This document shows, piece after piece, positions 1 to 55,864 of a stretch of DNA of 64,000 nucleotides (within the stretch, counting starts at the first letter, position 1; the number at the start of each line of letters is the position of its first letter). Location: NCBI GenBank assembly GCA_016197005.1, contig JACPWO010000002.1, positions 210,178-274,177 on the forward strand. The letters run 5' to 3'. The translations under genes were made by a program, and so were the position numbers. Source of the DNA: Candidatus Anderseniibacteriota bacterium. GTDB taxonomy: Bacteria > Patescibacteriota > Andersenbacteria > UBA10190. Below the pieces are notes generated by a model that was given only the letters and a program-made list of their open reading frames with translations, was not told the DNA's origin and searched no databases.

Positions 1-369
1 CATAGGAGCCGATCGTTTTTGGAGGCTTTCAAATTTGCTCAGTCCGGTATTTCGCAGGTCTATGCACAGGAATCGAACGTTCGACGCCAACTATGGCTTT
101 TTGTTATAGGTATTGGCTTGGCGCTTGTCTTACGGATATCGGTGCTGGAAATAGCAATGTTAGTGCTGGCAGGCGGAGTTATTATAAGTTTGGAGTTTTT
201 TAATACTGCACTGGAGAAAATAGAAGATCTGGTATGGCCCGAATATCGTGAAGCTGTCCGTTTTTCTAAGGATGCTGCTGCCGGCGCGGTCTTGATTGCC
301 AGTCTGGCGACGGCAATTGTGGCTGCCTTGATTTTTATACCGGCAATTGCTCGACTCCTGGTATACTAG
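1..369 (+). CDS. dgkA: diacylglycerol/undecaprenol kinase DgkA (frame open to nt 1, possibly 5'-partial)
   Basis: ORF 19..369; LNTALEKIED motif and C-terminal TM helices typical of DgkA; frame open upstream to window edge. Confidence 0.7.
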   Translation, partial: HRSRSFLEAFKFAQSGISQVYAQESNVRRQLWLFVIGIGLALVLRISVLEIAMLVLAGGVIISLEFFNTALEKIEDLVWPEYREAVRFSKDAAAGAVLIASLATAIVAALIFIPAIARLLVY

Positions 370-373
370 CCAC

Positions 374-1621
374 ATGTCTCGGATACAAAAAATTGCGGGG
401 ATTGATGCAGGAACATCGAAAGTCCGAGTTATTGTGGCCCAGAAAGACCCAGAAAGTGGGCAAATCGTAGTAAGTGGCAGTGGTATCGCACCGATGGCAG
501 GGATGCAGCGTGGGGTAATTACCGACATTGAAGAGGCGACAAAAGCAGTTAGTAGCGCTCTGGATGCAGCTGAACGAGTGGCCGGGTTCCCGGTTGAGCA
601 AGCGTACGTCAGTATTAATGGCCCCCATTTACATTCTCAAAATTCTCGGGGAGTTATTGCCGTAGGGCGAGCTGATGGCGAAATAGCTTCTGAAGATATC
701 GATCGAGTCATTAATGCGGCGCAAGCAATTTCACTTCCGGCTAACCGTGAGATTCTCCACGTTCTTCCACAGAACTTTATTGTTGATGGGCAGGAGCATA
801 TTCAGGATCCGATCGGGATGACAGGGGTCCGCCTCGAAGTAGAAACTCATGTTATTGAAGGGTCAGCTCCATTTATTAAAAACTTAGCAAAGGTTGTGAA
901 TCAGTCTGGTGTTCACATTGAGGATTTCGTGTTCGCACCACTAGCGGCTGCGCAAGCTGTTTTAGAAAAGCGGCAAAAGGAGCTTGGGGTGGTGCTTATA
1001 GATATGGGCGCTGGTACTACGAGCCTCGCTATTTTTGAAGATAAATCTCTTTTGCATACCGCTGTGTTGCCGGTTGGTAGTGCTCACATTACGAATGATA
1101 TCGCTATTGGTCTGCGTACCTCAATCGAGGTGGCGGAGGAAATAAAGATTCAATACGGAACCGCGTTGCCAGGTACTATAAAAGGAAATGATTCTATTGT
1201 TATTGATGATGGCGCCAAAGACGGCGGAGAAAGTCATAAAGTTTCACGTAAGGAAGTAGCAGAAATTATTGGTGCTCGTCTTGAAGAAATATTTTCTTTT
1301 GTTGATAAGGAGCTAAAAGCAGTCGGACGTTCCGGACTTCTCCCTGCCGGCGCAGTTATTACTGGTGGAGGTGCTCATTTGCCAGGATTGGTTGAAGTGG
1401 CAAAGAAACGTCTGAGGCTGCCGGCGAGAATTGGTCGACCACAAAATATTGGTGGAGTTATTGACCAGGCCGGGGATCCAGCATTTGCCGTTGCGCTTGG
1501 CCTCATTGCGTGGGCGATTGAGCAGGAATCTCGCACCCCAGGGCGCACTTCAATGCGTATTCCTAATATTGGCAAGACAGTTACACAAGTTCGCGATTGG
1601 TTTAGAACCTTTCTTCCGTAA
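374..1621 (+). CDS. ftsA: cell division protein FtsA
   Basis: ORF 347..1621; internal Met MSRIQKIAGIDAGTSKVRV fits FtsA N-terminus; actin-like ATPase motifs; immediately upstream of ftsZ. Confidence 0.9.
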   Translation: MSRIQKIAGIDAGTSKVRVIVAQKDPESGQIVVSGSGIAPMAGMQRGVITDIEEATKAVSSALDAAERVAGFPVEQAYVSINGPHLHSQNSRGVIAVGRADGEIASEDIDRVINAAQAISLPANREILHVLPQNFIVDGQEHIQDPIGMTGVRLEVETHVIEGSAPFIKNLAKVVNQSGVHIEDFVFAPLAAAQAVLEKRQKELGVVLIDMGAGTTSLAIFEDKSLLHTAVLPVGSAHITNDIAIGLRTSIEVAEEIKIQYGTALPGTIKGNDSIVIDDGAKDGGESHKVSRKEVAEIIGARLEEIFSFVDKELKAVGRSGLLPAGAVITGGGAHLPGLVEVAKKRLRLPARIGRPQNIGGVIDQAGDPAFAVALGLIAWAIEQESRTPGRTSMRIPNIGKTVTQVRDWFRTFLP

Positions 1622-1715
1622 AAACATTCAAATTTGTACATATTACGTGTTCAGTTTGAACACGTATTGTTATTGACAGGTAAGCTTCCACCCTCGTATC
1701 CTTCTAAGGAAGTAT

Positions 1716-2921
1716 ATGCCACTCAAGAAACCCACGATTGAAAACGTAGCGAACATAAAAGTCGTTGGTGTTGGTGGTAGCGGAAATGCTGCTTTAAACC
1801 GGATGATTGAAGCGAATATTCAAGGGGTCGACTTTATTGCTGTGAACACTGATGCTCAAGCTCTTCACTATTCCGGAGCGGGAACAAAGATGCATATTGG
1901 TCAAAACGTAACTCGTGGCCTCGGCGCTGGCATGAACCCAGCTGTTGGTCAGCAAGCAGCAGAAGAGAGTCGTGAAGAGATACATGAACTTTTGAAGGGT
2001 TCAGATATGGTTTTCGTCGCCGGTGGATTTGGTGGTGGTACTGCCAGTGGCGCTCTGCCAGTTGTGTCTGAAATTGCCAAAGAACTAGGTGCTTTAACTG
2101 TAGCTGTCGTGACTCGACCATTTTCTTTTGAAGGTCGTCAGCGTGCCACCATTGCTGAAGAAGCCTTAAGCGAACTTCAAGATCGGGTAGACGCTTCTGT
2201 CGTTATTCCGAATGACCGTTTGCTCCAAATTATTGATAAAAAAACAAGCTTAGTTGATGCTTTCCGAGTAGTTGATGACGTGCTGCGCCAAGGTGTCCAA
2301 GGTATTTCTGATCTCATCACCCACCACGGTATGGTAAACGTCGACTTTGCTGATATTAAAGCCATCGTGCAAAATGCTGGATCTGCTCTCATGGGTATTG
2401 GCCGGGCATCTGGGGAGAATCGAGCAACAGAAGCGGCCCGAGCAGCTATTGAAAGCCCTATGCTTGATGTGACTATCGATGGGGCGAAAGGAATTGTGTT
2501 CAATATTACCGCTGGCCCTGATCTACGGATGCATGAAGTGGAAGAAGTAGCTCGCGCTATTACTGAGCATGCTGATCCCAACGCAAAAGTCATCTTCGGA
2601 GCCGTTATGGATGGAGCACAAGTTGAAGAAGGAGAAATAAAAGTAACAGTTGTGGCGACGGGCTTTGATAAACCGGCGCTGCCTTCTAAGCAAAAGCAAC
2701 GTTATGCTGGTGCCACTCCATATCCAGGAGCAGCTCCAGTATTTCCTGGCTCTTCCCAAATGCCCCAACCTACTCCAGCTGTACCGCAAAACCCTGTATA
2801 TCGCGTAAATACACCAACCACCCGTCGCGACTCCATGGGCGAGGGTGAAGAAGACCTAGAGGTACCTACCTTTATTCGCCGTAAAATGCGCGAGCGAAAG
2901 CAACAGCTACCGGAAGAGTAA
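1716..2921 (+). CDS. ftsZ: cell division GTPase FtsZ
   Basis: GGGTASG tubulin signature, [10 protein letters not shown], Pro/Gln-rich C-terminal tail. Confidence 0.95.
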
Positions 2922-2935
2922 GATCTAAATCTTAG

Positions 2936-2957
2936 AACCGCCGCGAGGCGGTTTTTG
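2936..2957 (+). terminator. rho-independent terminator after ftsZ
   Basis: AACCGCC-GCGA-GGCGGTT stem-loop followed by TTTTT. Confidence 0.6.
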
Positions 2958-3003
2958 CTATTATGAAGGCGATGCGTGCTGTGTTGATGCAGTTGATAGT
3001 CGC

Positions 3004-4308
3004 ATGGTTACTTGGAATAACCGTTGGCATACTGCTATGAAAATCCAAGTTCTTGTTGCGGTTAGTGCGATATTTTTTCTTGGGTATCTGTGGGGAGTCA
3101 TTCACCAAGAATCGCTTACTACTTGTCGACTGGCAGATGAGTTTAGTGGCGTGATTACGCGTGTGTATTCGCTCGAGTCTGATCGTGCACAATATGTTGT
3201 CGCTGGTGATAGCGGGTGTTCTACTTTAGTGACCACCCTACGATTGCCAGAGTATGCGGCTGGTCAACGTATCTCTGTTGCTGGTGAAGTCCAGCCCATA
3301 TCCGATCTTCCTGAAGAATACGTAGGGTATCGTGACTACCTTGATCGACAAGCAATCGATGGGACGGTTCGTTTGGCTGATATAGAGGTAACGGGTGGCC
3401 AGCTATTTATAGGAGAGCGTATCCGCCAATCTTTTCGTAAACAAGTGGAAACTGTATTTGGACAGCCCGAAGCAGGAGTTATGAAGGCAATGCTTTTAGG
3501 GGATCGGGGAACGGTTAGCGAAGAGGCGCAGACAGCTTTTGAACGAACTGGAACAACGCATATTCTTTCAATCTCTGGCTTGCATGTTTCTATTCTTGTC
3601 ATTGTGCTCGCTTTTGTACTTGAATCTCTTCCACTTGGCCCGTGGGTACGGTCGAGCATAACGATTGCGCTTCTATGGATGTACATTCTTTTAATTGGTG
3701 CGCCGCCAGCCGCAGTACGAGCAGCGCTCTTTTGTACATGTATTCTATTAGCCCTTCGACTTCGAGTGTTGGTAAGCTTGTCTACCATATTTTTGCTGGC
3801 CGCTACTGCGATGATTTCGAGTAATCCCCATGTACTACAAGACATTGGCTTCCAATTGTCTTTCAGTGCGATTGCCGGCATGGGTCTAGTTCTGTTTTTA
3901 GTAGGACGTCCACAGTCACCACTTCTTAATGCATTTCTCATATCTCTGGGTGCGACCATTGGCACGTGGCCGATTGTGTCGTACCACTTTGGGCAAATCT
4001 CTCTCATTAGTCTGCCGGCAAATGTTTTAATAGTTCCCACGGTTGCACCACTTCTCATCCTGGCACTCTTATCTATTCTAATTAGTTTTGTGGTGCCAGC
4101 GCTCGGACTCGTCGGTGGTTTCTTTGTACACTTACTATGGAAATATATTTTTTCGGTGGCGTTGTTTATGAGCAACATACCTGGAGCAAGTTTTGCGTTT
4201 GCAACACCTTTCTGGCTAGCAGTGGGGTGGTATGGCGTTGTCGTACTAGGTGCAATATATACTTTGTCTCTTCAAAAACGTTCATGGCGCGAGATCTGGG
4301 TCAATTAA
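3004..4308 (+). CDS. comEC: ComEC/Rec2 N-terminal part (DUF4131 + competence domain); frame breaks at an A5 run
   Basis: MKAMLLGDRG...GTTHILSISGLHVSIL competence-domain motif; multiple TM helices; ends 4308 while the MBL domain continues in another frame. Confidence 0.8.
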   Translation: MVTWNNRWHTAMKIQVLVAVSAIFFLGYLWGVIHQESLTTCRLADEFSGVITRVYSLESDRAQYVVAGDSGCSTLVTTLRLPEYAAGQRISVAGEVQPISDLPEEYVGYRDYLDRQAIDGTVRLADIEVTGGQLFIGERIRQSFRKQVETVFGQPEAGVMKAMLLGDRGTVSEEAQTAFERTGTTHILSISGLHVSILVIVLAFVLESLPLGPWVRSSITIALLWMYILLIGAPPAAVRAALFCTCILLALRLRVLVSLSTIFLLAATAMISSNPHVLQDIGFQLSFSAIAGMGLVLFLVGRPQSPLLNAFLISLGATIGTWPIVSYHFGQISLISLPANVLIVPTVAPLLILALLSILISFVVPALGLVGGFFVHLLWKYIFSVALFMSNIPGASFAFATPFWLAVGWYGVVVLGAIYTLSLQKRSWREIWVN

Positions 4309-5132
4309 CAAGTACCGGCATTCTGGCGATTTCGTTCGCCGTGGCTGCTCTGGCCGGCGAGCCAACAAGCAAAGTTGTATTTCTTGATGTCGGCCAAGGC
4401 GATTCTATTTTATTACAAGATGGAATGCAGCAAATCCTTATCGATGGCGGCAAAGGAGACATTGTCCTTGAGCGTTTGGCTGAAGAAGTGCCTTACTTTG
4501 ATAGAAGTATCGAGGTGATTATCTCAACACACCCGGATCAAGATCATTTGGAAGGCTTGCTCCATATTTTACAACGATATGACGTGAAGTTAGTTCTTCT
4601 GCCACAAGCCGCTAAAGAAGATGCGTTGCAAGAAGCGTGGTTAAATCTTCTGCACGAAAAAAATATTCCGTATCGCTTTGCATGGTCAGGACAAACTCTT
4701 AGTGTAGGGAATATGAAGCTTAGTATCTTAGGACCCTTTGATACTGATGCCGCCCGCGCGGCTACTCGCGGTAACATTAATAACGCTTCGGTCTCAACTC
4801 GTCTAGATTACAACGGACTATCCTTTCTCTTAACTGGTGATGCAGAGCTTCAAGCAGAGCAACTTCTTGTGCACACTCTTCCACTTCAACTTAATGTAGA
4901 CATTTTAAAAGCCGGCCACCATGGTAGTAATTCTTCGACTCATACACCGCTTATCCGAGCTGCTTCGCCGGCAGCAGCAGTTATTTCGGTAGGGGCAGAT
5001 AATACGTATGGGCACCCGCATCCCGCCGTATTGCAACGACTTGAAGGGCTACGGCTATGGCGAACCGATGAAGATGGATCTGTACGTTTTCTGTTCAAGA
5101 ATGGACAATGGCTTTCAGCTGTTGCAAAATAA
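4284..5132 (+). CDS. comEC: ComEC C-terminal metallo-beta-lactamase domain (separate frame; probably the same gene as 3004..4308)
   Basis: ORF 4137..5132; VVFLDVGQGDS, HPDQDHLEGL, GHHGSNSS motifs of ComEC MBL domain. Confidence 0.8.
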   Translation: MARDLGQLTSTGILAISFAVAALAGEPTSKVVFLDVGQGDSILLQDGMQQILIDGGKGDIVLERLAEEVPYFDRSIEVIISTHPDQDHLEGLLHILQRYDVKLVLLPQAAKEDALQEAWLNLLHEKNIPYRFAWSGQTLSVGNMKLSILGPFDTDAARAATRGNINNASVSTRLDYNGLSFLLTGDAELQAEQLLVHTLPLQLNVDILKAGHHGSNSSTHTPLIRAASPAAAVISVGADNTYGHPHPAVLQRLEGLRLWRTDEDGSVRFLFKNGQWLSAVAK

Positions 5133-7759: not shown

Positions 7760-8200
7760 TCATCTCATCTTATCAGCTATGGCACACATGTCGGGGTAGG
7801 CGTCATCCCATGCCTTTTCAAGTAATTCCATGGTCTCCATAACTGACCGTGAGCAATTAAATGTCACCTCCCATCTTTCTTCTCGATCCGATAGCTCTTG
7901 CCTAAAGTGTAGAAGGTAGTCTGTCAGAGGAGAATGTTGAGAAAATTCTTTGAGACAGGCACCAAGGTGCCGAGCCAAGTGTTGTGGCGGTGGCACCAAA
8001 AAACGATTGTCTGCTAGTACGTACATTCCTATTGGTATAAGGCCCCCAGGCTCTGGCTTTCGTAAGACGAAGGAAAGTGTTTGCACGCGATCTTTGATAG
8101 CGAGAAATAAGCACATCGCCAGGATTTTTGGAACAGGGTGCATACCGCCAAAAAACTTTTCTCTAACTCTGGTAATAAAGAGAGTTTCGTCGTCAGTCAT
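7760..8200 (-). CDS. hypothetical protein (146 aa), no recognisable family
   Basis: Only long ORF in this interval; own terminator; function unknown. Confidence 0.45.
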   Translation of the reverse strand: MTDDETLFITRVREKFFGGMHPVPKILAMCLFLAIKDRVQTLSFVLRKPEPGGLIPIGMYVLADNRFLVPPPQHLARHLGACLKEFSQHSPLTDYLLHFRQELSDREERWEVTFNCSRSVMETMELLEKAWDDAYPDMCAIADKMR

Positions 8201-8340: not shown

Positions 8341-8763
8341 TTGCCTACTTTAAACCAACTTATCCGCAAGGGACGCACCCGCCGATTGAGAAAACCAAAG
8401 TCTCCGGCTCTTTTACGTGGATACAACGTGTTGAAAGACCGACCAGTTATCTTCAAGAAAGGTTCACCTTTTAAGCGTGGTGTCTGTTTACAAGTAAAGA
8501 CAATGACCCCGAAGAAACCAAATTCCGCTCTGCGTAAAGTTGCTCGTGTTCGTCTATCTAATGGAATGGAAGTAACTGCTTTTATCCCGGGTGAAGGACA
8601 TAATCTTCAGGAGCATTCGATTGTTGTTATCCGTGGTGGTCGTCGAAAGGATTTACCAGGTGTTCGCTATCAAGTAGTTCGAGGTGTACTCGATACCGTT
8701 GGTGTTGAAGCTCGTCGCCGTGGTCGATCTAAATATGGTGCTAAGAAACCAAAGCAAAAGTAA
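8341..8763 (+). CDS. rpsL: 30S ribosomal protein S12 (TTG start)
   Basis: [11 protein letters not shown]...[18 protein letters not shown]. Confidence 0.95.
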
Positions 8764-8768
8764 TACCT

Positions 8769-9242
8769 ATGCCACGAAAAAAGCGCGTATATAAAAATAA
8801 GAGATACATTAAACCGGATCCTAAATTCGGTAACTTAATGTTGTCTCGTTTTATTAATTACATGATGTACGACGGCAAAAAGAGCACGGCGCAAACAGTG
8901 GTTTATGGAGCGCTCGCACAGGTATCAGAGAAGACAAAAAATGATCCGCTCGTGGTCTTTGATGCCGCTCTTCGTAATGTCACTCCTATCCTTGAAGTAA
9001 AAGCTCGCCGCGTTGGTGGTGCTAACTATCAAATTGCTCAGGAAGTACGACCAGAACGACGGGAGATGCTCGCCATGCGCTGGCTGCGAGATGCAGCGCG
9101 TGCTCGTGGTGGCAAAACAATGGCCGAAAAACTGGCGGCTGAACTCATTGATGCTTCCAATAAAGAAGGTGGAGCAATGAAAAAGCGAGAAGATGTACAC
9201 AAGATGGCCGAGGCTAACCGCGCATTCAGCCACTTCTCTTAA
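8769..9242 (+). CDS. rpsG: 30S ribosomal protein S7
   Basis: [22 protein letters not shown] family match. Confidence 0.95.
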
Positions 9243-9255
9243 ATCCGCTTAAGGT

Positions 9256-11361
9256 ATGTCAACTGATTTAAAGAAGTTTCCGAATGTTACTATAGAAAAA
9301 GTACGGAATTTCGGAATTATTGCCCACATTGATGCTGGTAAAACAACCGTGTCTGAGCGCGTGCTCTTCTACACCGGTCTTACGCATAAGATCGGAGAAG
9401 TGCATGAGGGGGAGGCAGTCATGGATTGGATGGAACAGGAACGAGAGCGCGGCATTACAATTACTGCTGCTGCTACGACTACGTTCTGGAAAGACCATCG
9501 CCTAAACCTCATCGATACACCGGGACACGTCGATTTCACTATTGAAGTCGAGCGCAGCTTGCGTGTGCTCGATGGCGCTGTTGTTGTGTTTGACGGTGTA
9601 GCCGGAGTTGAGCCACAAAGCGAAACGGTTTGGCACCAAGCGGAGAAATATAAAGTACCCCGCATGTGTTTTATTAATAAAATTGATCGCACTGGTGCAG
9701 ATTTTTGGAAAGCGGTTGACTCTATTCATGAACGCCTGACCAAAAAAACTGCCATTATGACCCTGCCAATTGGATCGGAAGATAATTTTGAAGGTCTCGT
9801 TGATTTACTTACAGAAAAAGCTTGGTATTTCGAAGGCAAAATGGGAGAAGTAATTATTGAGAAGGAAATTCCAGCCGAATTGCAGGAAGAGGCTAAGAAG
9901 CGCCGCGCTGAACTTGTAGAAAGAATCGCAGAGTTGGATGAAAAACTAACCGAAAAGTTTCTCGAGGCACAACCTATTGCACTCGACGAATTAAACATAG
10001 CGCTTCGTAAGGGAGTTATTGCGAATGAAATTGTCCCAATTTTTTGTGGATCTGCTTTGAAAAACAAAGGCGTGCAGCGAGTGCTGGATGCGGTTGTTGC
10101 GTACTTGCCTTCCCCCATTGATGTGCCACCAGTTGAAGGCACGGATCCTGATGATCTTGAAAAGAAAATTGTTCGTAAACCAGATCCCAGCGAGCCATTT
10201 GCTGCCCTGGCCTTTAAAGTTGCCAACGACCCCTATGTTGGACAGGTGACATTCTTCCGCGTCTACTCAGGCACGATTAAAACTGGCTCATATATTTACA
10301 ACTCGTCTGTAGGCAAAAAGGAACGCGTCAGCCGTATCCTCCGCATGCATGCTAATGATCGAGAAGAAGTAGAAGAAATTTCCGCTGGTGGTATTGGTGC
10401 GCTCGTGGGTATGAAATTTACCACAACTGGTGACACGCTGTGTGATGAAGATCACCCTCTTATTTTGGAACGTATTACTGGCGCTGATCCTGTTATTTCA
10501 ATTGCAGTTGAACCAAAGACTAAAGCTGATCAGGAAAAGATGGGCATGGCGCTCAAGTCCCTCATGAATGAAGACCCAACATTCCGGGTACGCACCGATG
10601 AAGAGACGATGCAGACAATTATGGAAGGAATGGGTGAACTGCATTTGGAAATTATGGTTGACCGTATGAAGCGAGAATTCGGAGTCCAAGTAAACGTTGG
10701 TAAGCCTCAGGTTGCGTACAAAGAAACAATCACCAAGATTACTGAAGCTGAAGGCCGGTACATCAAACAGTCAGGTGGTCGCGGACAATATGGTCATGTC
10801 TGGCTGCGTCTGGAACCGATGGAGCGTGGTAAGGGTGTTGAATTTGAAGATGATATTAAAGGTGGCGCCGTCCCACGGGAATATGTTCCGGCTATTGAAA
10901 AAGGTGTCATTGAATCCGCTCGCAACGGTGCGATTGCTGGATTTCCAGTTGTCGATATCAAAGCCGTTGCCTACGACGGTAGCTACCATGATGTAGATAG
11001 CTCGGAAATTGCCTTCAAAATTGCTGCTTCGATGGCTTTCCGCAGTGGTGTTAAGAATGCTTCACCAGTTCTACTTGAACCTATTATGAAAGTCGAAGTT
11101 ATTACCCCAGAAAATTACATGGGTGATGTAGTCGGAGACTTGAACGCTCGCCGTGGTCAGATTTTAGGCATGAGTGAACGAGGGACAGTAAAAGTTATTG
11201 ATGCATTAGTGCCGCTTGGTTCCATGTTTGGATATGCAACGCAACTCCGTTCCATGAGTTCCGGCCGTGCCAACTATTCGATGCAGTTTGATCATTACCA
11301 AGAAGTACCTCGCAATATTCAGGACGAACTTGTCGGCGCCAAGACAGTCAAAAAGATATAA
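9256..11361 (+). CDS. fusA: elongation factor G
   Basis: [10 protein letters not shown]1 motif, 701 aa, str-operon context. Confidence 0.95.
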
Positions 11362-11462
11362 CAAAATTTTTAAAGAAAAATCCCCGTTGGTTTTGCGCCA
11401 AGGGGATGACTGTGCACTATATGCTGCGAGTCAGCGATGCATGCGGTAGTCCGCCTGCAATT

Positions 11463-12056
11463 TCAAAGCTCACAGCTGAACAAGAAAGCATCTCCATTTA
11501 CGGCGAGTGGGTGTTCTCGAGGCAATTTGCCTCTGAAACGGAAACCAGCAGAACGCAAAATAAACTGAAGGAAATTGCAATCTTGATGCAGATCCATTTG
11601 TATATCGAGACAGCCTCTCATCTTCAAATACGCTAAGGTCTCTTGAACAAGAAGTGGCGCAATCCTGGCGTATAGGGAGATGTTTTTAACGGCAATCTTT
11701 TGGATCTTTCCGATAGTTGGATCGTTAAGATTAATTGAGAATACGCAGCACCCAACAAATCGCCCATTAATGTACCCGAGCACCGCGTTCGTTTCACGGG
11801 TTAGTATGGCCTCGGTGTAATCATATTCTTGCCAGACATCGGAATCCTCTGGACTCATCATCTCTTCCATGGAAGGCGCGTAGGCAAGCGCTACCGCAGG
11901 ATTGACCCGCGCCACTTCAATGATGTCGGTTGCATGATCAATTAAGATGCTCATTAGCCGTCTCCATTGTGAGGGGATCAAGGGAACATTCCACGCGCAC
12001 TGACTGTAACCGTTACAGACTGTTATCTTTTTGCTCTGAAATTGTAACATTGTCAA
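11463..12056 (-). CDS. hypothetical protein with GNAT-like fold (acetyl-CoA motif not evident)
   Basis: 197-aa ORF antisense to operon direction; secondary-structure pattern resembles GNAT but Q/RxxGxG/A motif absent. Confidence 0.45.
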   Translation of the reverse strand: MTMLQFQSKKITVCNGYSQCAWNVPLIPSQWRRLMSILIDHATDIIEVARVNPAVALAYAPSMEEMMSPEDSDVWQEYDYTEAILTRETNAVLGYINGRFVGCCVFSINLNDPTIGKIQKIAVKNISLYARIAPLLVQETLAYLKMRGCLDIQMDLHQDCNFLQFILRSAGFRFRGKLPREHPLAVNGDAFLFSCEL

Positions 12057-12101
12057 CTTTATCCGCTTGAATTCTAGACATACTCACCGTACGTTTATCT
12101 G

Positions 12102-12479
12102 ATGTCCGAAGAATCTCTCAAGTCGGTTTTGGCACCTGTTCTCAAAGTCTTAAAAGATTTAGGCGGTAAGTTTGTGTTTTCAGATGATACCGGCGAGACG
12201 TTTGTTATTATGTCGAAGAAGGAGCTCGTGAAAAATCGCCGGCAGTCGGAAAAACAATTACCTTTGCTTTCGGCAGAAGCTACCGCTAAAGCAGTTCGAG
12301 AACATGTACCAATACAACTTGATGAAGAAATAATTGAAAACATTAACCGAGATATTGCGTTATCACTTACCTCCGAAGACTCGGATGAAAACTTGGCCTG
12401 GGAGGCGGAGCCAGTAAATATGAAGAAGGTAAGATTCGAATCGCTAAAAGGTGACATATCCCCAGATCTCCAAGATTAA
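12102..12479 (+). CDS. hypothetical acidic protein (125 aa)
   Basis: K/E-rich coding-like codon usage; divergent from 11463..12056. Confidence 0.45.
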   Translation: MSEESLKSVLAPVLKVLKDLGGKFVFSDDTGETFVIMSKKELVKNRRQSEKQLPLLSAEATAKAVREHVPIQLDEEIIENINRDIALSLTSEDSDENLAWEAEPVNMKKVRFESLKGDISPDLQD

Positions 12480-12625
12480 CCCCCTGTTATTGACGGGGGA
12501 AAGACGGTATAGTATACAGACAACAATCTCTTGAAGGCGCCTTGCACTTGCAAGGTGGACTACAAACGCTGAAGGAGGCTTTTGCCCGTTTGGGCATTTA
12601 ATTTGTAATTCATAACGTAAAACCT

Positions 12626-13819
12626 ATGGCTGAAAAATTCGAGCGCAATAAGCCTCACGTTAACGTCGGTACGATCGGCCACGTCGACCATGGCAAAACT
12701 ACCCTGACAGCAGCTCTTCTGCATGTTCAGAATATGCGCGGTGGTGTTAAGAAACTTTTGAGTGTTGATGAAATTGATGCTTCACCCGAAGAAAAAGAAC
12801 GTGGTATTACTATTTCAACTACTCACGTAGAGTTTGAATCTGAAAAACGTCACTACGCTCACGTTGATTGTCCTGGACACGCTGATTACATCAAAAACAT
12901 GATCACTGGCGCTGCCCAAATGGATGGAGCAATCCTAGTTGTATCTGCAACTGATGGACCAATGCCACAGACTCGCGAGCACGTTCTGCTTGCTCGTCAG
13001 GTAGGCGTTCCTCAGATCGTTGTCTTCTTGAATAAAGTGGATGCGGTTGATGATCCAGAATTGGTTGACCTCGTTGAAGAGGAAGTTCGCGATCTTTTGA
13101 GCAAATATGAGTTCGATGGCAAGAATGCCAAAATTATTCGTGGCTCAGCTCTAAAAGCACTTGATACCAAGAGCGTTGATGATGAAGCAGCTAAACCAAT
13201 CATTGATTTGGTTACTGCTCTCGACGAAACAATTCCAGATCCAGTTCGTGATACTGACAAGCCATACCTCATGCCAATTGAAGATGTCTTCTCTATTGAA
13301 GGTCGTGGCACGGTAGTAACTGGTCGTATCGAACGTGGTGTTGTAAAGGTTAACGATGAAGTTGAAATCGTTGGTCTCCGCGACACTCAGAAGACAGTTG
13401 TAACCGGAATTGAAATGTTCAACAAACAGCTCGACGAAGGACAAGCTGGTGATAACGCTGGCGTACTTCTCCGCGGTCTTAAGAAAGAAGATGTTGAGCG
13501 CGGACAGGTGGTCGCTGCTCCTAAATCCATTACTCCTCATACTGAATTTGACGCTGAAGTGTACGTTCTGACCAAAGATGAAGGTGGTCGTCACACTCCA
13601 TTCTTCAAAGGATACAAGCCTCAGTTCTACGTTCGTACAACTGACGTAACTGGTGAAGTTCAATTGCCAGAAGGAACTGAAATGGTTATGCCTGGCGATA
13701 CTATCAGCATCAAGGTAAAACTTGGATCTGCTGTCGCTATGGAAGACGGTATGCGCTTCGCTATCCGTGAAGGTGGACGCACTGTTGGTGCCGGAGTTGT
13801 AACGAAGGTTAACAAATAA
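12626..13819 (+). CDS. tuf: elongation factor Tu
   Basis: [22 protein letters not shown] motifs. Confidence 0.97.
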
Positions 13820-13850: not shown

Positions 13851-14216
13851 ATGGCCACCAAAGAAAAAGCTGAAGAAAAGAAAGAAGAAGCAGTAGCCGT
13901 ACCAGTTGCGGTGCCTCGCATTCGCATTAAGCTCAAAGCATATGATCATAAACTGATCGACCAGTCTGCGAAGCAGATTGTTGATGCAATTGAGCGCGAT
14001 GGCGGTAAAGTATCTGGCCCAGTGCCATTACCAACCGGTAAGAAGAAATACACCGTCAATCGCTCGACGTTCGTCCACAAAGACGCTCGCGATCAATATG
14101 AGATTCGGGTACACAAGCGCCTCATTGATATCACTGAGTCCACCTCACGCACCGTTGACACTCTGATGAGTCTCAACCTGCCAGCTGGAGTCGATGTATC
14201 GATGAAAACAGGCTAG
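13851..14216 (+). CDS. rpsJ: 30S ribosomal protein S10 (N-terminal ~20 aa extension)
   Basis: [17 protein letters not shown]...[20 protein letters not shown]. Confidence 0.93.
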
Positions 14217-14724
14217 GCCTTAGTAAATAGAAACATGACACCACCCCGCATACGCGGGGTGGTTGCGTTATTTTGTACTCAGGATGAGAGCCGACAGCCA
14301 AGAGATCGTCAATGAGGGCGATCTCGTAGCCGTTTTCGGCTGCCCATTGTTCCACGTCCCTGGTGAGGACAACGCGTCCGAAATGGACAAGGACGAGGTT
14401 TCGCGGACCTGGGGGCAGCGACAGCGGACAGCGTTTTTCCGTGATGTCGCCGTTCTTCCCGTCGTAGGCCCCGTCGGCGATGCGGTCACCCAGTGTCTTC
14501 TCCTTTTCAGGGATGACGACACCGGTGAGTTCCATGACGGTCGGGTACAGTTGACCCGAACTGAGGAACTTACGGAACGCTTCGCGGTCCAGATTGCGGT
14601 TGGCCTTGAGAAGGTCGGTAATGAAGCCGCCTTCAATGAGCCATTGCAGTTGCCCGCAGGAGACCTTCTCCTGGGTGAGGATGTTGAGAACTTGCTGGGC
14701 TTGTCGCAGGGTTGCGATGCTCAT
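14173..14724 (-). CDS. high-GC foreign gene fragment, unknown function (start 14724; 3' end runs into host terminator hairpin, probably truncated near 14275)
   Basis: GC3-rich codon usage (CTG, GCC, GAC, ATC) in an about 60% GC block inside a 45% GC operon; Met start inside an 18-nt palindrome. Confidence 0.5.
14240..14276 (+). terminator. strong hairpin/terminator immediately after rpsJ
   Basis: Perfect 10-bp stem ACCACCCCGC-AUAC-GCGGGGUGGU then UGCGUUAUUUUGU. Confidence 0.55.
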
Positions 14725-27405: not shown

Positions 27406-27442
27406 AAACTCCTGACCCACAAAGTGTCAGGAGAGTTTTTTT
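27405..27442. terminator. bidirectional terminator between convergent uppS and GNAT genes
   Basis: CTCCTGAC-N9-GTCAGGAG hairpin flanked by A-run and T7. Confidence 0.6.
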
Positions 27443-27954
27443 AGGTCCAGCCAGTACTGAACCTCTTGGACCATCGTATGCTCAAGCGGACGTTCCACAG
27501 GAACACCGTCAGTGGTCATGCCAAGTGATTCGTAGAATCTACGGCCTCGCTCGTTACTTGCAAGCGTCCACACAAATACTTTTTTCACTCTGTGTTCGTG
27601 CAGGAGCCCAAAGGCTAGGTTGGCCAGAGACGCACCGACCTTTTGTCCCCAGTAACCTGGATGGACGTACAGAACGTAAATCTCGCCTAGTAACTCTCGG
27701 CGATCGTGCTCGCTGCTAACACCGAATCGAATGAAGCCAATCGTCTGACGATTGAAGCGCGCCACGTAAGTTTGGATCTTCGTGGGTGGCTCCAAGAGTC
27801 GCTTCCATACTCGAGGCTGTGTTTCTTTTGTACACATCTGCAGCTGCTCCGGAGTGAGCAAATTCTCATAGGCTACTTGCCAAGCCTCAGCGTGAAGCTC
27901 AGCAATGCCGTCGGCATCGTCAAGCTGCGCCGGTCGAATGAACCAAGGGGGCAT
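27427..27954 (-). CDS. GNAT family N-acetyltransferase
   Basis: YVHPGYWGQKVGASL motif A, 175 aa. Confidence 0.8.
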   Translation of the reverse strand: MPPWFIRPAQLDDADGIAELHAEAWQVAYENLLTPEQLQMCTKETQPRVWKRLLEPPTKIQTYVARFNRQTIGFIRFGVSSEHDRRELLGEIYVLYVHPGYWGQKVGASLANLAFGLLHEHRVKKVFVWTLASNERGRRFYESLGMTTDGVPVERPLEHTMVQEVQYWLDLKKLS

Positions 27955-55033: not shown

Positions 55034-55864
55034 ATGAAGACTCTCATCATTGGTGCTAAAGGCATGCTAGGAAGCATGCTGGCACAAGTGTTTTCCGACT
55101 GGAAACCCACGGCGTGGGATAGAGCCGAGGTAGATATTACTGATCTTCATGATGTACGGGAGAAGTTACGTGCCCTTGCTCCAAAAGTAATTATTAACGC
55201 TGCAGCATACACAGATGTTGATGGTGCTGAAACGCAGCAGGAATTGGCTTTTGCGGTCAACGAAGGAGGAGTGCGTAATCTCGCAATAGTTGCTAAAGAA
55301 ATTGATGCAACACTTATTCATTACAGCACTGATTATGTTTTTGATGGACAGAAAAAAGAGGGGTATTCAGAAAACGATTCACCGGGACCAGCCGTAAATG
55401 TATATGGGCAATCTAAATTAGCTGGTGAGCGAGCTTTAGTTGAAATAAAGCCGAAGTTTTATCTGCAGCGCAGTGCGTGGCTATATGGTCCAGGCGGGAA
55501 AAACTTTGTCGATACGATGCTGGAGATGGGAAAAACAAATGATAACGTAACGGTGGTAGCGGATCAGTATGGCAGTCCTACATTTACAAAAGACTTAGCG
55601 TTAGCAACTCGAGCTCTCGTATCTGAGAAGTATCCATTTGGCATTTACCATAGTGTTAACGTAGGAACGGCTAGTTGGTTTGATTTCGCTAATAAGATAT
55701 TCCAGATTAAGCATATGCAGGTAGACGCCAAGCCGGTGAATAGTACTGCCTTTCCACGTCCAGCCAGGCGTCCCCAATGGAGTGTGCTCTTGAACGAAAA
55801 TGGTCCTGCCATGAGACCCTGGGAAAAAGCGCTTGAGGAATACCTCGGTCCATCCGAAGAATAA
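55034..55864 (+). CDS. rmlD: dTDP-4-dehydrorhamnose reductase
   Basis: MKTLIIGAKGMLGS, YSTDYVFDG, YGQSK. Confidence 0.85.
   Translation: MKTLIIGAKGMLGSMLAQVFSDWKPTAWDRAEVDITDLHDVREKLRALAPKVIINAAAYTDVDGAETQQELAFAVNEGGVRNLAIVAKEIDATLIHYSTDYVFDGQKKEGYSENDSPGPAVNVYGQSKLAGERALVEIKPKFYLQRSAWLYGPGGKNFVDTMLEMGKTNDNVTVVADQYGSPTFTKDLALATRALVSEKYPFGIYHSVNVGTASWFDFANKIFQIKHMQVDAKPVNSTAFPRPARRPQWSVLLNENGPAMRPWEKALEEYLGPSEE

Follow-up and report, generated by a model that had tools for sequence, protein, structure and literature searches.

Two genes of apparently separate history, and predicted separate promoters, between fusA and tuf in an Andersenbacteria str cluster

The adjacency of fusA and tuf, the genes for EF-G and EF-Tu, is among the most stable gene pairs in bacteria. 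In the stretch of DNA considered here, a 64,000-nucleotide (nt) window of a Candidatus Andersenbacteria metagenome-assembled genome contig on which all coordinates below are given, the two genes are parted by an interval of 1264 base pairs (bp) that holds exactly two open reading frames (ORFs), a minus-strand gene for a GNAT-like protein and a plus-strand gene, called X below, for a small acidic protein. Andersenbacteria are members of the Candidate Phyla Radiation (CPR). The explanation that best accounts for the whole, and that we hold with rather more confidence than doubt, is that the interval is not one insertion and that its two genes are unrelated to each other, each sitting at a transcription-unit boundary of a fragmented str cluster. 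A minus-strand gene derived from rimI, X, and tuf would thus represent separate histories and separate units within the cluster, and what is new in this lineage would be a re-architecture of the str cluster itself. The features at the center of the argument are the following.

9256-11361, plus strand: fusA (EF-G), a 701-residue ORF, last gene of the upstream rpsL-rpsG-fusA unit
11463-12056, minus strand: GNAT-like gene, maximal ORF, 197 residues from a TTG start
11463-11954, minus strand: GNAT-like gene, probable coding sequence, 163 residues, with ATG at 11954 and GGAGA at 11965-11961
12102-12479, plus strand: gene X, 125-residue acidic protein
12626-13819, plus strand: tuf (EF-Tu), a 397-residue ORF, first gene of the tuf-rpsJ unit

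The two genes between fusA and tuf are listed at NCBI as HYR90_02545 (163 residues from the ATG at 11954) and HYR90_02550, both under the name "hypothetical protein". The initial annotation of this DNA had recognized two genes here, and had read them as a single insertion with host-like base composition, lineage-specific or old rather than recently acquired. Much of that description has held up. Both ORFs were found and X has 116 homologues, the G+C content of the interval (0.41-0.48) is host-like when set beside that of the flanking operon genes (about 0.42-0.49), and the content does look lineage-specific or old. The single insertion has to be given up, however, because the two genes appear to have separate histories, with X found in the absence of any GNAT gene in about half of the relatives.

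The comparison with relatives is based on 49 loci (L001-L049), which were gathered from Logan and JGI contigs encoding homologues, from GTDB species representatives and from JGI metagenomes; 45 of them cover the junction of fusA and X, and L048 and L049 are the same locus. The gene order throughout is M50 peptidase, rpsL, rpsG, fusA, a variable gap, X, tuf, rpsJ and rplC. In all of these loci fusA is 73-83% identical to the window copy, and the loci therefore form one clade; the tuf genes are 82-93% identical to that of the window. X lies between fusA and tuf, on the operon strand, in every one of the 49. The distance from X to tuf is usually 80-430 nt, with insertions in four loci, and the gap between fusA and X ranges from 56 to 3227 bp. 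This second gap, the fusA|X slot, contains no gene at all in about half of the 45 junction-covering loci, including the close relatives L001-L003.

The X family grew from nine homologues at 40-59% identity in a first search to 116 proteins in a profile search, all of them from sources that are labelled as CPR or Andersenbacteria or are unlabelled metagenomic sequences. Because of these 116 homologues X is certainly a real gene, and it would be a fixed, lineage-specific member of the str cluster in Andersenbacteria, carried on the operon strand directly upstream of tuf. The initial annotation had also called the plus-strand protein acidic and unlike a ribbon-helix-helix (RHH) antitoxin, and both statements agree with the data: the isoelectric point (pI) is 4.75 for the window protein and 4.4 for the family median, and none of the 116 members matches any Pfam family. 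Searches of X against NCBIfam and PHROGs gave no match, the PADLOC models of anti-phage defence proteins gave only a chance-level match to KwaA (E = 0.058), and a profile search of the PDB gave a best E value of 0.027, which is not significant.

A structure predicted by AlphaFold2 from the 116-sequence alignment reached a predicted local distance difference test (pLDDT) score of 74.8, with values of 76-91 over residues 11-90. The prediction begins with a helix (residues 6-19) and a beta-hairpin (23-37) and then has three more helices (39-48, 58-68 and 75-92); residues 96-107 are disordered and are followed by a C-terminal segment of moderate confidence. Foldseek found no fold match for this model (best E values 0.21 in the PDB and 0.069 in BFVD). 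The conserved INRDIA helix is followed by a linker of 4 to 55 residues, depending on the family member, with 29% Asp or Glu and only 5% Lys or Arg, and the protein ends in an almost invariant 17-mer, [RK][VI]RFEP[LI][RK]GDL[PS]P[ED]LQ[ED], which in the window reads KVRFESLKGDISPDLQD. Four of the five invariant columns of the family fall within this terminal peptide. X is therefore laid out in three parts: its N-terminal domain is folded, a disordered and acidic tether of variable length follows, and a near-invariant C-terminal peptide closes the protein.

A protein built to dock on some conserved partner would be expected to show such a combination, and since the gene keeps its place between those for EF-G and EF-Tu, that partner most likely belongs to the translation apparatus. 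That X does dock by its C-terminal peptide on the translation machinery (EF-Tu, EF-G or the ribosome) is nonetheless a tentative proposal, to which we give distinctly less than even weight, and an action on the adjacent tuf leader instead, described below, seems less probable still. The broader idea that X is an unrecognized translation component of Andersenbacteria, either with its tail docking on EF-Tu, EF-G or the ribosome or as a trans-acting reader of the tuf/S10 leader RNA, is likewise rather unlikely in our estimate. If it were true, X and the rimI gene found beside it in relatives would make rimI-X-tuf a clade-specific neighborhood for the modification and regulation of EF-Tu. X is in any case a candidate for a new translation-associated factor in organisms with reduced ribosomes, and its most constrained part is a docking-type C-terminal peptide. 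On the other side of the account, no relative in sequence or fold anchors a function for X.

The view that X and tuf belong to separate units comes from the promoters predicted in front of each. The one for X is as follows.

12067-12095, plus strand: predicted X promoter, with -35 box TTGAAT at 12067-12072, a 17-nt spacer and -10 box TACGTT at 12090-12095, 6 nt before the ATG at 12102

The regions upstream of X cannot be aligned as a whole, and the promoter element is kept nonetheless: 43 of the 49 loci have a TTGnnn-16..18-TAnnnT pattern that stops 4-9 nt (most often 6) short of the X ATG, and no Shine-Dalgarno sequence. By arithmetic, about 0.4% of random positions would show such a pattern. 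Its conservation suggests that X opens a transcription unit of its own. With the -10 box ending 6 nt before the ATG, transcription would be expected to start on the A of the start codon, and the X mRNA is probably leaderless. In L001 and L003 a hairpin that follows fusA overlaps or directly precedes the -35 box of X.

The same promoter pattern is present at 9 of the 68 gene starts in the window, and those where a promoter-like TTGnnn-17-TAnnnT abuts the start codon (about 9 of the 68 genes) include the genes starting at 55034, 58364 and 50958. Few genes of the window have a Shine-Dalgarno sequence, and many start directly after (A)TAACCT, ATACCT or AAACCT (e.g. at 8769, 12626, 16665, 18411 and 19176). 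Together these observations suggest an initiation signal other than Shine-Dalgarno, and frequent leaderless first genes, in this genome. A look through the literature for leaderless genes in CPR turned up nothing specific.

The initial annotation had also argued that tuf needs its own promoter, offering a candidate, and had pointed to two palindromes within 12480-12600. The candidate proves to be conserved among relatives, and the palindromes fall into place as helix P2 (12540-12555) of a conserved leader RNA and as a terminator-like hairpin (12583-12596). The elements between X and tuf are these.

12480-12499, plus strand: hairpin CCCCCUGU-UAU-UGACGGGGG, directly after the X stop codon, with no U-run, overlapping the tuf -35 box
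12490-12518, plus strand: predicted tuf promoter, with -35 box TTGACG at 12490-12495, a 17-nt spacer and -10 box TATACA at 12513-12518
12529-12576, plus strand: tuf leader RNA, with helix P1a 12529-12532/12573-12576, helix P1b 12536-12539/12567-12570, hairpin P2 12540-12555 and bulge UGGACUACAAA
12583-12605, plus strand: second hairpin TGCCCGTTTGGGCA (hairpin proper 12583-12596), with a T-rich tail after it; the tuf ATG is about 30 nt further downstream

The predicted tuf promoter aligns with the same element in L003, L045, L046, L004 and L012, and 36 of 37 loci have a TTG[ACT]NN-16..18-TANNN[AT] pattern between X and tuf, among them the loci with large insertions there. Its usual form is TTGAC[TGA]-17-TA[CT]A[AC]A, and its usual place is 70-160 nt upstream of tuf. 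Where large insertions part X from tuf, the promoter stays with tuf. L047 is such a case, with a Fic-domain gene at 761-1816(+) in the fusA|X slot and a 600-residue gene with no Pfam match at 2407-4209(+) between X and tuf; the tuf promoter there still lies about 130 nt upstream of tuf despite the insertion. We take tuf to be expressed from this conserved predicted promoter, and transcription from it would pass through a structured, terminator-like leader before reaching the gene.

The layout of that leader, which in the window falls within 12519-12625, recurs in many loci: P1a (CCUC/GAGG), a small internal loop, P1b (GGCG/CGCC), a P2 hairpin whose sequence and length are unrelated from locus to locus, a 3' bulge conserved as UGGRUAAAA, and a U-run directly after P1. 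This architecture appears in the minimum-free-energy folds of 15 of 19 leaders. A covariance model, R1, built from three leader copies detects the motif in front of tuf at 14 loci (e.g. L011:5482-5537, L028:1284-1339 and L005:7439-7496), and the window copy at 12529-12576 scores 12 bits in a local search (E = 0.006). In the R1 alignment 97.5% of cells are paired and 11 of 14 pairs have compensatory changes, values that none of 500 shuffles reach, and slid controls of the alignment are paired in 35-45% of cells. Against this stands the fact that the pair counts come from an alignment fitted to the model. RNAalifold applied to a plain MAFFT alignment of the tuf leaders gave no structure, because the 5' strand was misaligned, a difficulty that the covariance model solved. 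Rfam has no match at E <= 1 in window positions 11300-12700, and none at the leader position in L011, L028 or L004.

The leader thus appears to be an undescribed structured RNA, and it is a candidate cis-regulatory or attenuator element of the tuf-rpsJ unit. The second hairpin, which resembles a terminator or attenuator, is shared with L003, where the loop has changed. In E. coli (Escherichia coli) the S10 operon has an attenuator leader that responds to ribosomal protein L4. Because tuf here heads a tuf-rpsJ-rplC-rplD unit, its leader may, as a matter of speculation and by analogy with that case, be an attenuator of the ribosomal-protein type; it may also, equally speculatively, be a target of X. 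Whatever its role, a leader RNA before tuf-rpsJ with support from covariation is an unreported object that can be tested.

The remaining members of the cluster that bear on its division into units are listed here.

8341-8763, plus strand: rpsL, str cluster
8769-9242, plus strand: rpsG, str cluster
13851-14216, plus strand: rpsJ, followed by rplC, rplD and others

Taken with the rpsL-rpsG-fusA genes upstream, the predicted promoters of X and tuf would split the str cluster here into at least three promoter-defined units. It should be said against this arrangement that the promoters, the leaderless start and the terminators are all deduced from sequence conservation. A generic scan for promoters and terminators gave background-level counts and missed the real elements, so that conservation across loci was needed to see them. 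If the arrangement is correct, a whole CPR lineage has fixed an extra uncharacterized gene between fusA and tuf, and has broken the cluster into separately promoted units.

The history of the minus-strand gene is best approached from its counterparts. A GNAT gene occupies the fusA|X slot in 11 distinct loci, on the plus strand in L006 and L010 and on the minus strand, divergent from X, in L011, L013, L019, L028, L031, L032, L045, L046 and L048 (= L049). These proteins match Pfam Acetyltransf_1 with E values of 1e-9 to 1e-15, and their best NCBIfam family is rimI, TIGR01575, so that rimI, usually divergent from X, is the commonest tenant of the fusA|X boundary. To our knowledge rimI is typically not found between fusA and tuf elsewhere. 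The initial annotation had said that its reading would fall if relatives carried the insert as conserved housekeeping genes of known function, and the loci bear this out by half: rimI is an ordinary gene, while X is conserved without a known function. The junction rimI proteins have a conserved additional C-terminal tail, (W/F)H(P/S)xNR(I/V)..(Y/F), after the GNAT domain, as in L046:1261-1815(-), L031:3302-3850(-) and L019:4291-4824(-). In L013 two GNAT genes lie in tandem in the slot, at 3669-4370(-) and 4395-4871(-), one of them rimI-like and the other a diverged 233-residue paralogue, the two being 31% identical; this is possibly a snapshot of duplication and divergence within the slot.

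The window gene has the slot and strand of the rimI genes of L045, L046, L048, L011, L013, L019, L028, L031 and L032. In two near relatives, L045 and L046, whose fusA is 81-83% identical, GNAT and X diverge just as they do in the window. We favor, with a little more confidence than not, the reading that it is a local and very fast-diverged descendant of the junction rimI. The weak GNAT similarity noted in the initial annotation is borne out by Pfam PF00583 (Acetyltransf_1), which scores 20.0 bits for the 197-residue form and 20.2 bits for the 163-residue form against a cutoff of 20.7 (E = 8.8e-4 and 7.3e-4, profile positions 3-104 of 116), and by the only NCBIfam match of the protein, which is to rimI (TIGR01575, 14.2 bits, E = 0.036, below the equivalog cutoff of 86.4). 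On the GNAT fold itself the structure prediction is uninformative: a single-sequence AlphaFold2 model had a pLDDT of 38, and what agrees with the fold is only the order of secondary-structure elements. The PHROG acetyltransferase family phrog_3810 also matches weakly (E = 0.0025). Scores against TIGR01575 within the one slot form a graded series of 104, 86, 81, 72, 40 and 14 bits, with L011 at 104, L048 at 86.3, L046 at 80.8, L019 at 72.2, L045 at 40.1 and the window lowest.

Smith-Waterman alignment with the L031 rimI is colinear over window residues 28-158 and L031 residues 22-151, with a score reached by 1 of 3000 shuffles; for the L045 rimI the figure is 14 of 3000, and three unrelated slot tenants used as controls gave z-scores of -0.7 to 1.3. 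Slot, orientation and colinear similarity, the features looked for in a positional descendant of the junction rimI, are therefore all present. In a multiple alignment with junction rimI the framework from beta4 to alpha3 is recognizable (LAVAAQYRQQGIASHLVQRVL in L045, IAVKNISLYARIAPLLVQETL in the window), and the pyrophosphate loop for acetyl-CoA that lies between these two elements has changed from RRQGIG to LYARIA. Motif A (Q/R-x-x-G-x-G/A) is absent, as the initial annotation had suspected in finding no recognizable acetyl-CoA loop: the AVAPxxRRQGIG of the junction rimI aligns with AVKNISLYARIA, in which there is no Gly and the Arg/Gln is replaced. The C-terminal tail of the family is missing as well. 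The protein is thus probably catalytically impaired, and would no longer work as a standard acetyl-CoA-dependent RimI.

Several points weigh against descent from rimI. A hidden Markov model (HMM) of canonical junction rimI scores the window protein at only E = 1.1, and hhalign against the same canonical set gives E = 0.08 over 30 columns. The Pfam score lies just below threshold and the homology statistics are modest, the fold is not demonstrated at a pLDDT of 38, and the 16 comparisons made bring the best shuffle result to a corrected p of roughly 0.005. Position alone is no proof, since the slot also holds genes that are not GNATs, namely those for DUF559, riboflavin kinase, Fic and TrpR-like proteins; a repeat protein is a further tenant, and orphan minus-strand ORFs of 150-180 residues occupy the slot in L004, L012, L018, L034 and L042.

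In the chief competing account the minus-strand gene is an unrelated orphan, arrived by horizontal gene transfer, arisen de novo or drawn from another GNAT lineage, that was inserted at a permissive fusA|X boundary. The E value of 1.1 from the junction-rimI HMM speaks for it. A word-indexed search of 5.8 billion proteins and an exhaustive phmmer search of 1.84 billion representatives found no homologue except the protein itself at E <= 0.001, and phmmer against the PDB gave no match. The slot accepts unrelated genes such as those for DUF559, riboflavin kinase, Fic and the repeat protein, and the window protein lacks the C-terminal (W/F)HPxNR(I/V) tail common to the other junction proteins. That tail is kept by the slot proteins of L004 (4379-4888(-)) and L012 (4336-4872(-)), which are otherwise unrecognizable; hhalign of this pair against canonical junction rimI is weak (E = 0.18), and hhalign of the window protein against the pair gives E = 6e-4. 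Set against the orphan account are a strand, size and position equal to those of rimI in the closest relatives L045 and L046, the fact that rimI is the only NCBIfam match, the colinear full-domain alignments with flat controls, the host-like G+C content and the graded series of scores in one slot. On balance we consider an unrelated orphan unlikely, though it is the most serious of the rivals.

A second rival holds that the minus-strand ORF is no longer coding or never was, being a dead rimI remnant or a chance ORF. The loop is lost, there are no homologues by which purifying selection could be shown, the start is ambiguous between TTG 12056 and ATG 11954, and the gene is deleted in the nearest relatives. 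On the other hand, a frame diverged to about 15-20% identity should carry stop codons. At a stop frequency of about 0.054 per codon, the probability of an open frame of 163-197 codons is by arithmetic roughly 1e-4 to 2e-5 (about 1e-4 for 163 codons), and the similarity in GNAT register extends across the whole domain. The ATG at 11954 has GGAGA 6 nt before it and coincides in the alignment with the first strand of the GNAT domain, and this spacing and coincidence make it the preferred start. The gene also ends in a strong hairpin and U-run after its stop codon.

11372-11407, minus strand: terminator-like hairpin of the minus-strand gene, stem 11380-11390 / 11398-11407, then UUUUUCUUU

On the minus strand, positions 11362-11462 fold into a structure of -30.8 kcal/mol that contains this hairpin (z = -3.0, none of 200 shuffles as good); a simple terminator scan had missed it because of a bulge in the stem. 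Read on the plus strand, the hairpin comes after the fusA stop codon and has no U-run. A non-coding ORF therefore seems quite improbable.

Returning to descent from the junction rimI, a neighbor-joining tree of fusA groups the window with L003, whose slot is empty, and with L045, whose rimI is already diverged; across the tree the rimI state is widespread, and the degenerate and empty states are patchy. The window gene would have been released from its original constraint, and would now be in late decay, or else survive as a pseudoenzyme in a different role. The equally near relatives L001-L003 have already lost the gene, and the window copy may be heading the same way. The single slot would then display a natural series of rimI decay, from full equivalog through loss of the acetyl-CoA loop to deletion, that should be useful for studying how enzyme genes are lost or repurposed. 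E. coli RimI has a dual specificity, acetylating the N-termini of S18 and EF-Tu (PMC9079301). In the relatives with a canonical copy there is thus a functional reason for rimI to lie beside tuf, and it is doubtful that this reason extends to the loop-less version in the window. The window has a second GNAT gene, at 27427-27954 (-), which is canonical (175 residues, Pfam Acetyltransf_1 E = 5e-14); it is not rimI, scoring only 25 bits against TIGR01575, and no canonical rimI was seen in the 64-kb window.

The initial annotation had likened the divergent pair to a toxin/antitoxin or regulator/effector module, with a GNAT toxin of the TacT/AtaT type. Its appeal is easy to see, in that about a dozen relatives repeat the divergent arrangement of GNAT and X, and GNAT toxins are of similar size. 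The module nevertheless does not survive the comparison and must be judged highly improbable. About half of the loci have X and no GNAT, and in L006 and L010 the GNAT lies on the same strand as X; the slot GNATs are housekeeping enzymes that best match rimI (TIGR01575) and not toxins of the TacT/AtaT type; and X has its own predicted promoter and is tied to tuf rather than to the GNAT. No RHH or DUF1778 domain is found by Pfam in X or the 116 family members, PADLOC gives no match for the GNAT-like protein and only the chance-level KwaA match for X, and a GNAT toxin would require the acetyl-CoA loop, which is missing from the window protein. A tempting toxin-antitoxin annotation of the pair is thereby disposed of.

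A few further observations concern the boundaries of the cluster and of the interval. A 12-nt inverted repeat with one mismatch (11458-11469 / 12033-12044) brackets the maximal GNAT-like ORF. It was considered as the signature of a mobile element and rejected, being at chance level (an estimated ~2 expected per 1.4 kb) and probably meaningless, and a repeat search of the region of about 1.4 kb found no convincing flanking repeats around the insert. Between rpsJ and rplC lies a 183-residue ORF (14173-14724, minus strand) that overlaps the last 44 nt of rpsJ and has a G+C content of 0.55-0.57, against about 0.45 around it; it has no match in Pfam, NCBIfam, PADLOC or PHROG and no tblastn match in the related loci. 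The rpsJ|rplC junction is variable in relatives (119-2259 bp), often with minus-strand ORFs of about 180 residues; it has the appearance of another permissive boundary, where the gene may have been acquired more recently. A 146-residue ORF at 7760-8200 (-), between the M50 peptidase gene and rpsL, likewise has no match in Pfam, NCBIfam, PADLOC or PHROG and no tblastn counterpart in the related loci. No literature on the ribosomal operons of Andersenbacteria was found.

Several known systems may be set beside this neighborhood. The minus-strand gene resembles RimI (TIGR01575) in domain length, GNAT register, and the slot and strand of the relatives' rimI, and it adjoins X and, beyond it, the gene for EF-Tu, a known RimI substrate; it differs in its score (14 bits against a cutoff of 86.4), in having LYARIA for RRQGIG, in lacking the clade-specific tail, and in having no detectable homologue in global searches. 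In the known GNAT toxin-antitoxin pairs, antitoxin and toxin share one operon and transcript, and the antitoxin is of the RHH or DUF1778 kind. The window resembles TacT/TacA, AtaT/AtaR and KacT/KacA in placing a small GNAT-sized protein beside a small acidic one, but its genes diverge rather than share a transcript, neither an RHH nor a DUF1778 domain is present in the partner, the GNAT is of apparent rimI lineage and lacks the acetyl-CoA loop, and the strict co-occurrence of those systems breaks down, with X found without a GNAT in about half of the 45 junction-covering loci.

X itself recalls the archaeal and eukaryotic stalk proteins P1/P2 and the bacterial SSB tail in its folded domain, acidic tether and conserved C-terminal peptide, and its gene is placed between those of two translational GTPases. 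The analogy is one of architecture alone, with no similarity in sequence or fold, and serves as a lead rather than as functional evidence. In Actinobacteria and Deinococcus, mapped leaderless mRNAs have a TANNNT -10 box 6-8 nt ahead of the start codon, and X is like them in its TAnnnT ending 6 nt before the ATG and in its lack of a Shine-Dalgarno sequence; the leaderless start in Andersenbacteria is a prediction from sequence. The leader before tuf-rpsJ is analogous in position and form to the leaders of ribosomal protein operons, and it differs from the E. coli S10 leader in matching no Rfam family. Finally, the gene order of the classical str and S10 operons, rpsL-rpsG-fusA ... tuf-rpsJ-rplC-rplD, is kept here, with the difference that an extra conserved gene, X, stands between fusA and tuf, that the cluster would comprise at least three promoter-defined units, and that variable tenants occupy the boundaries between them.

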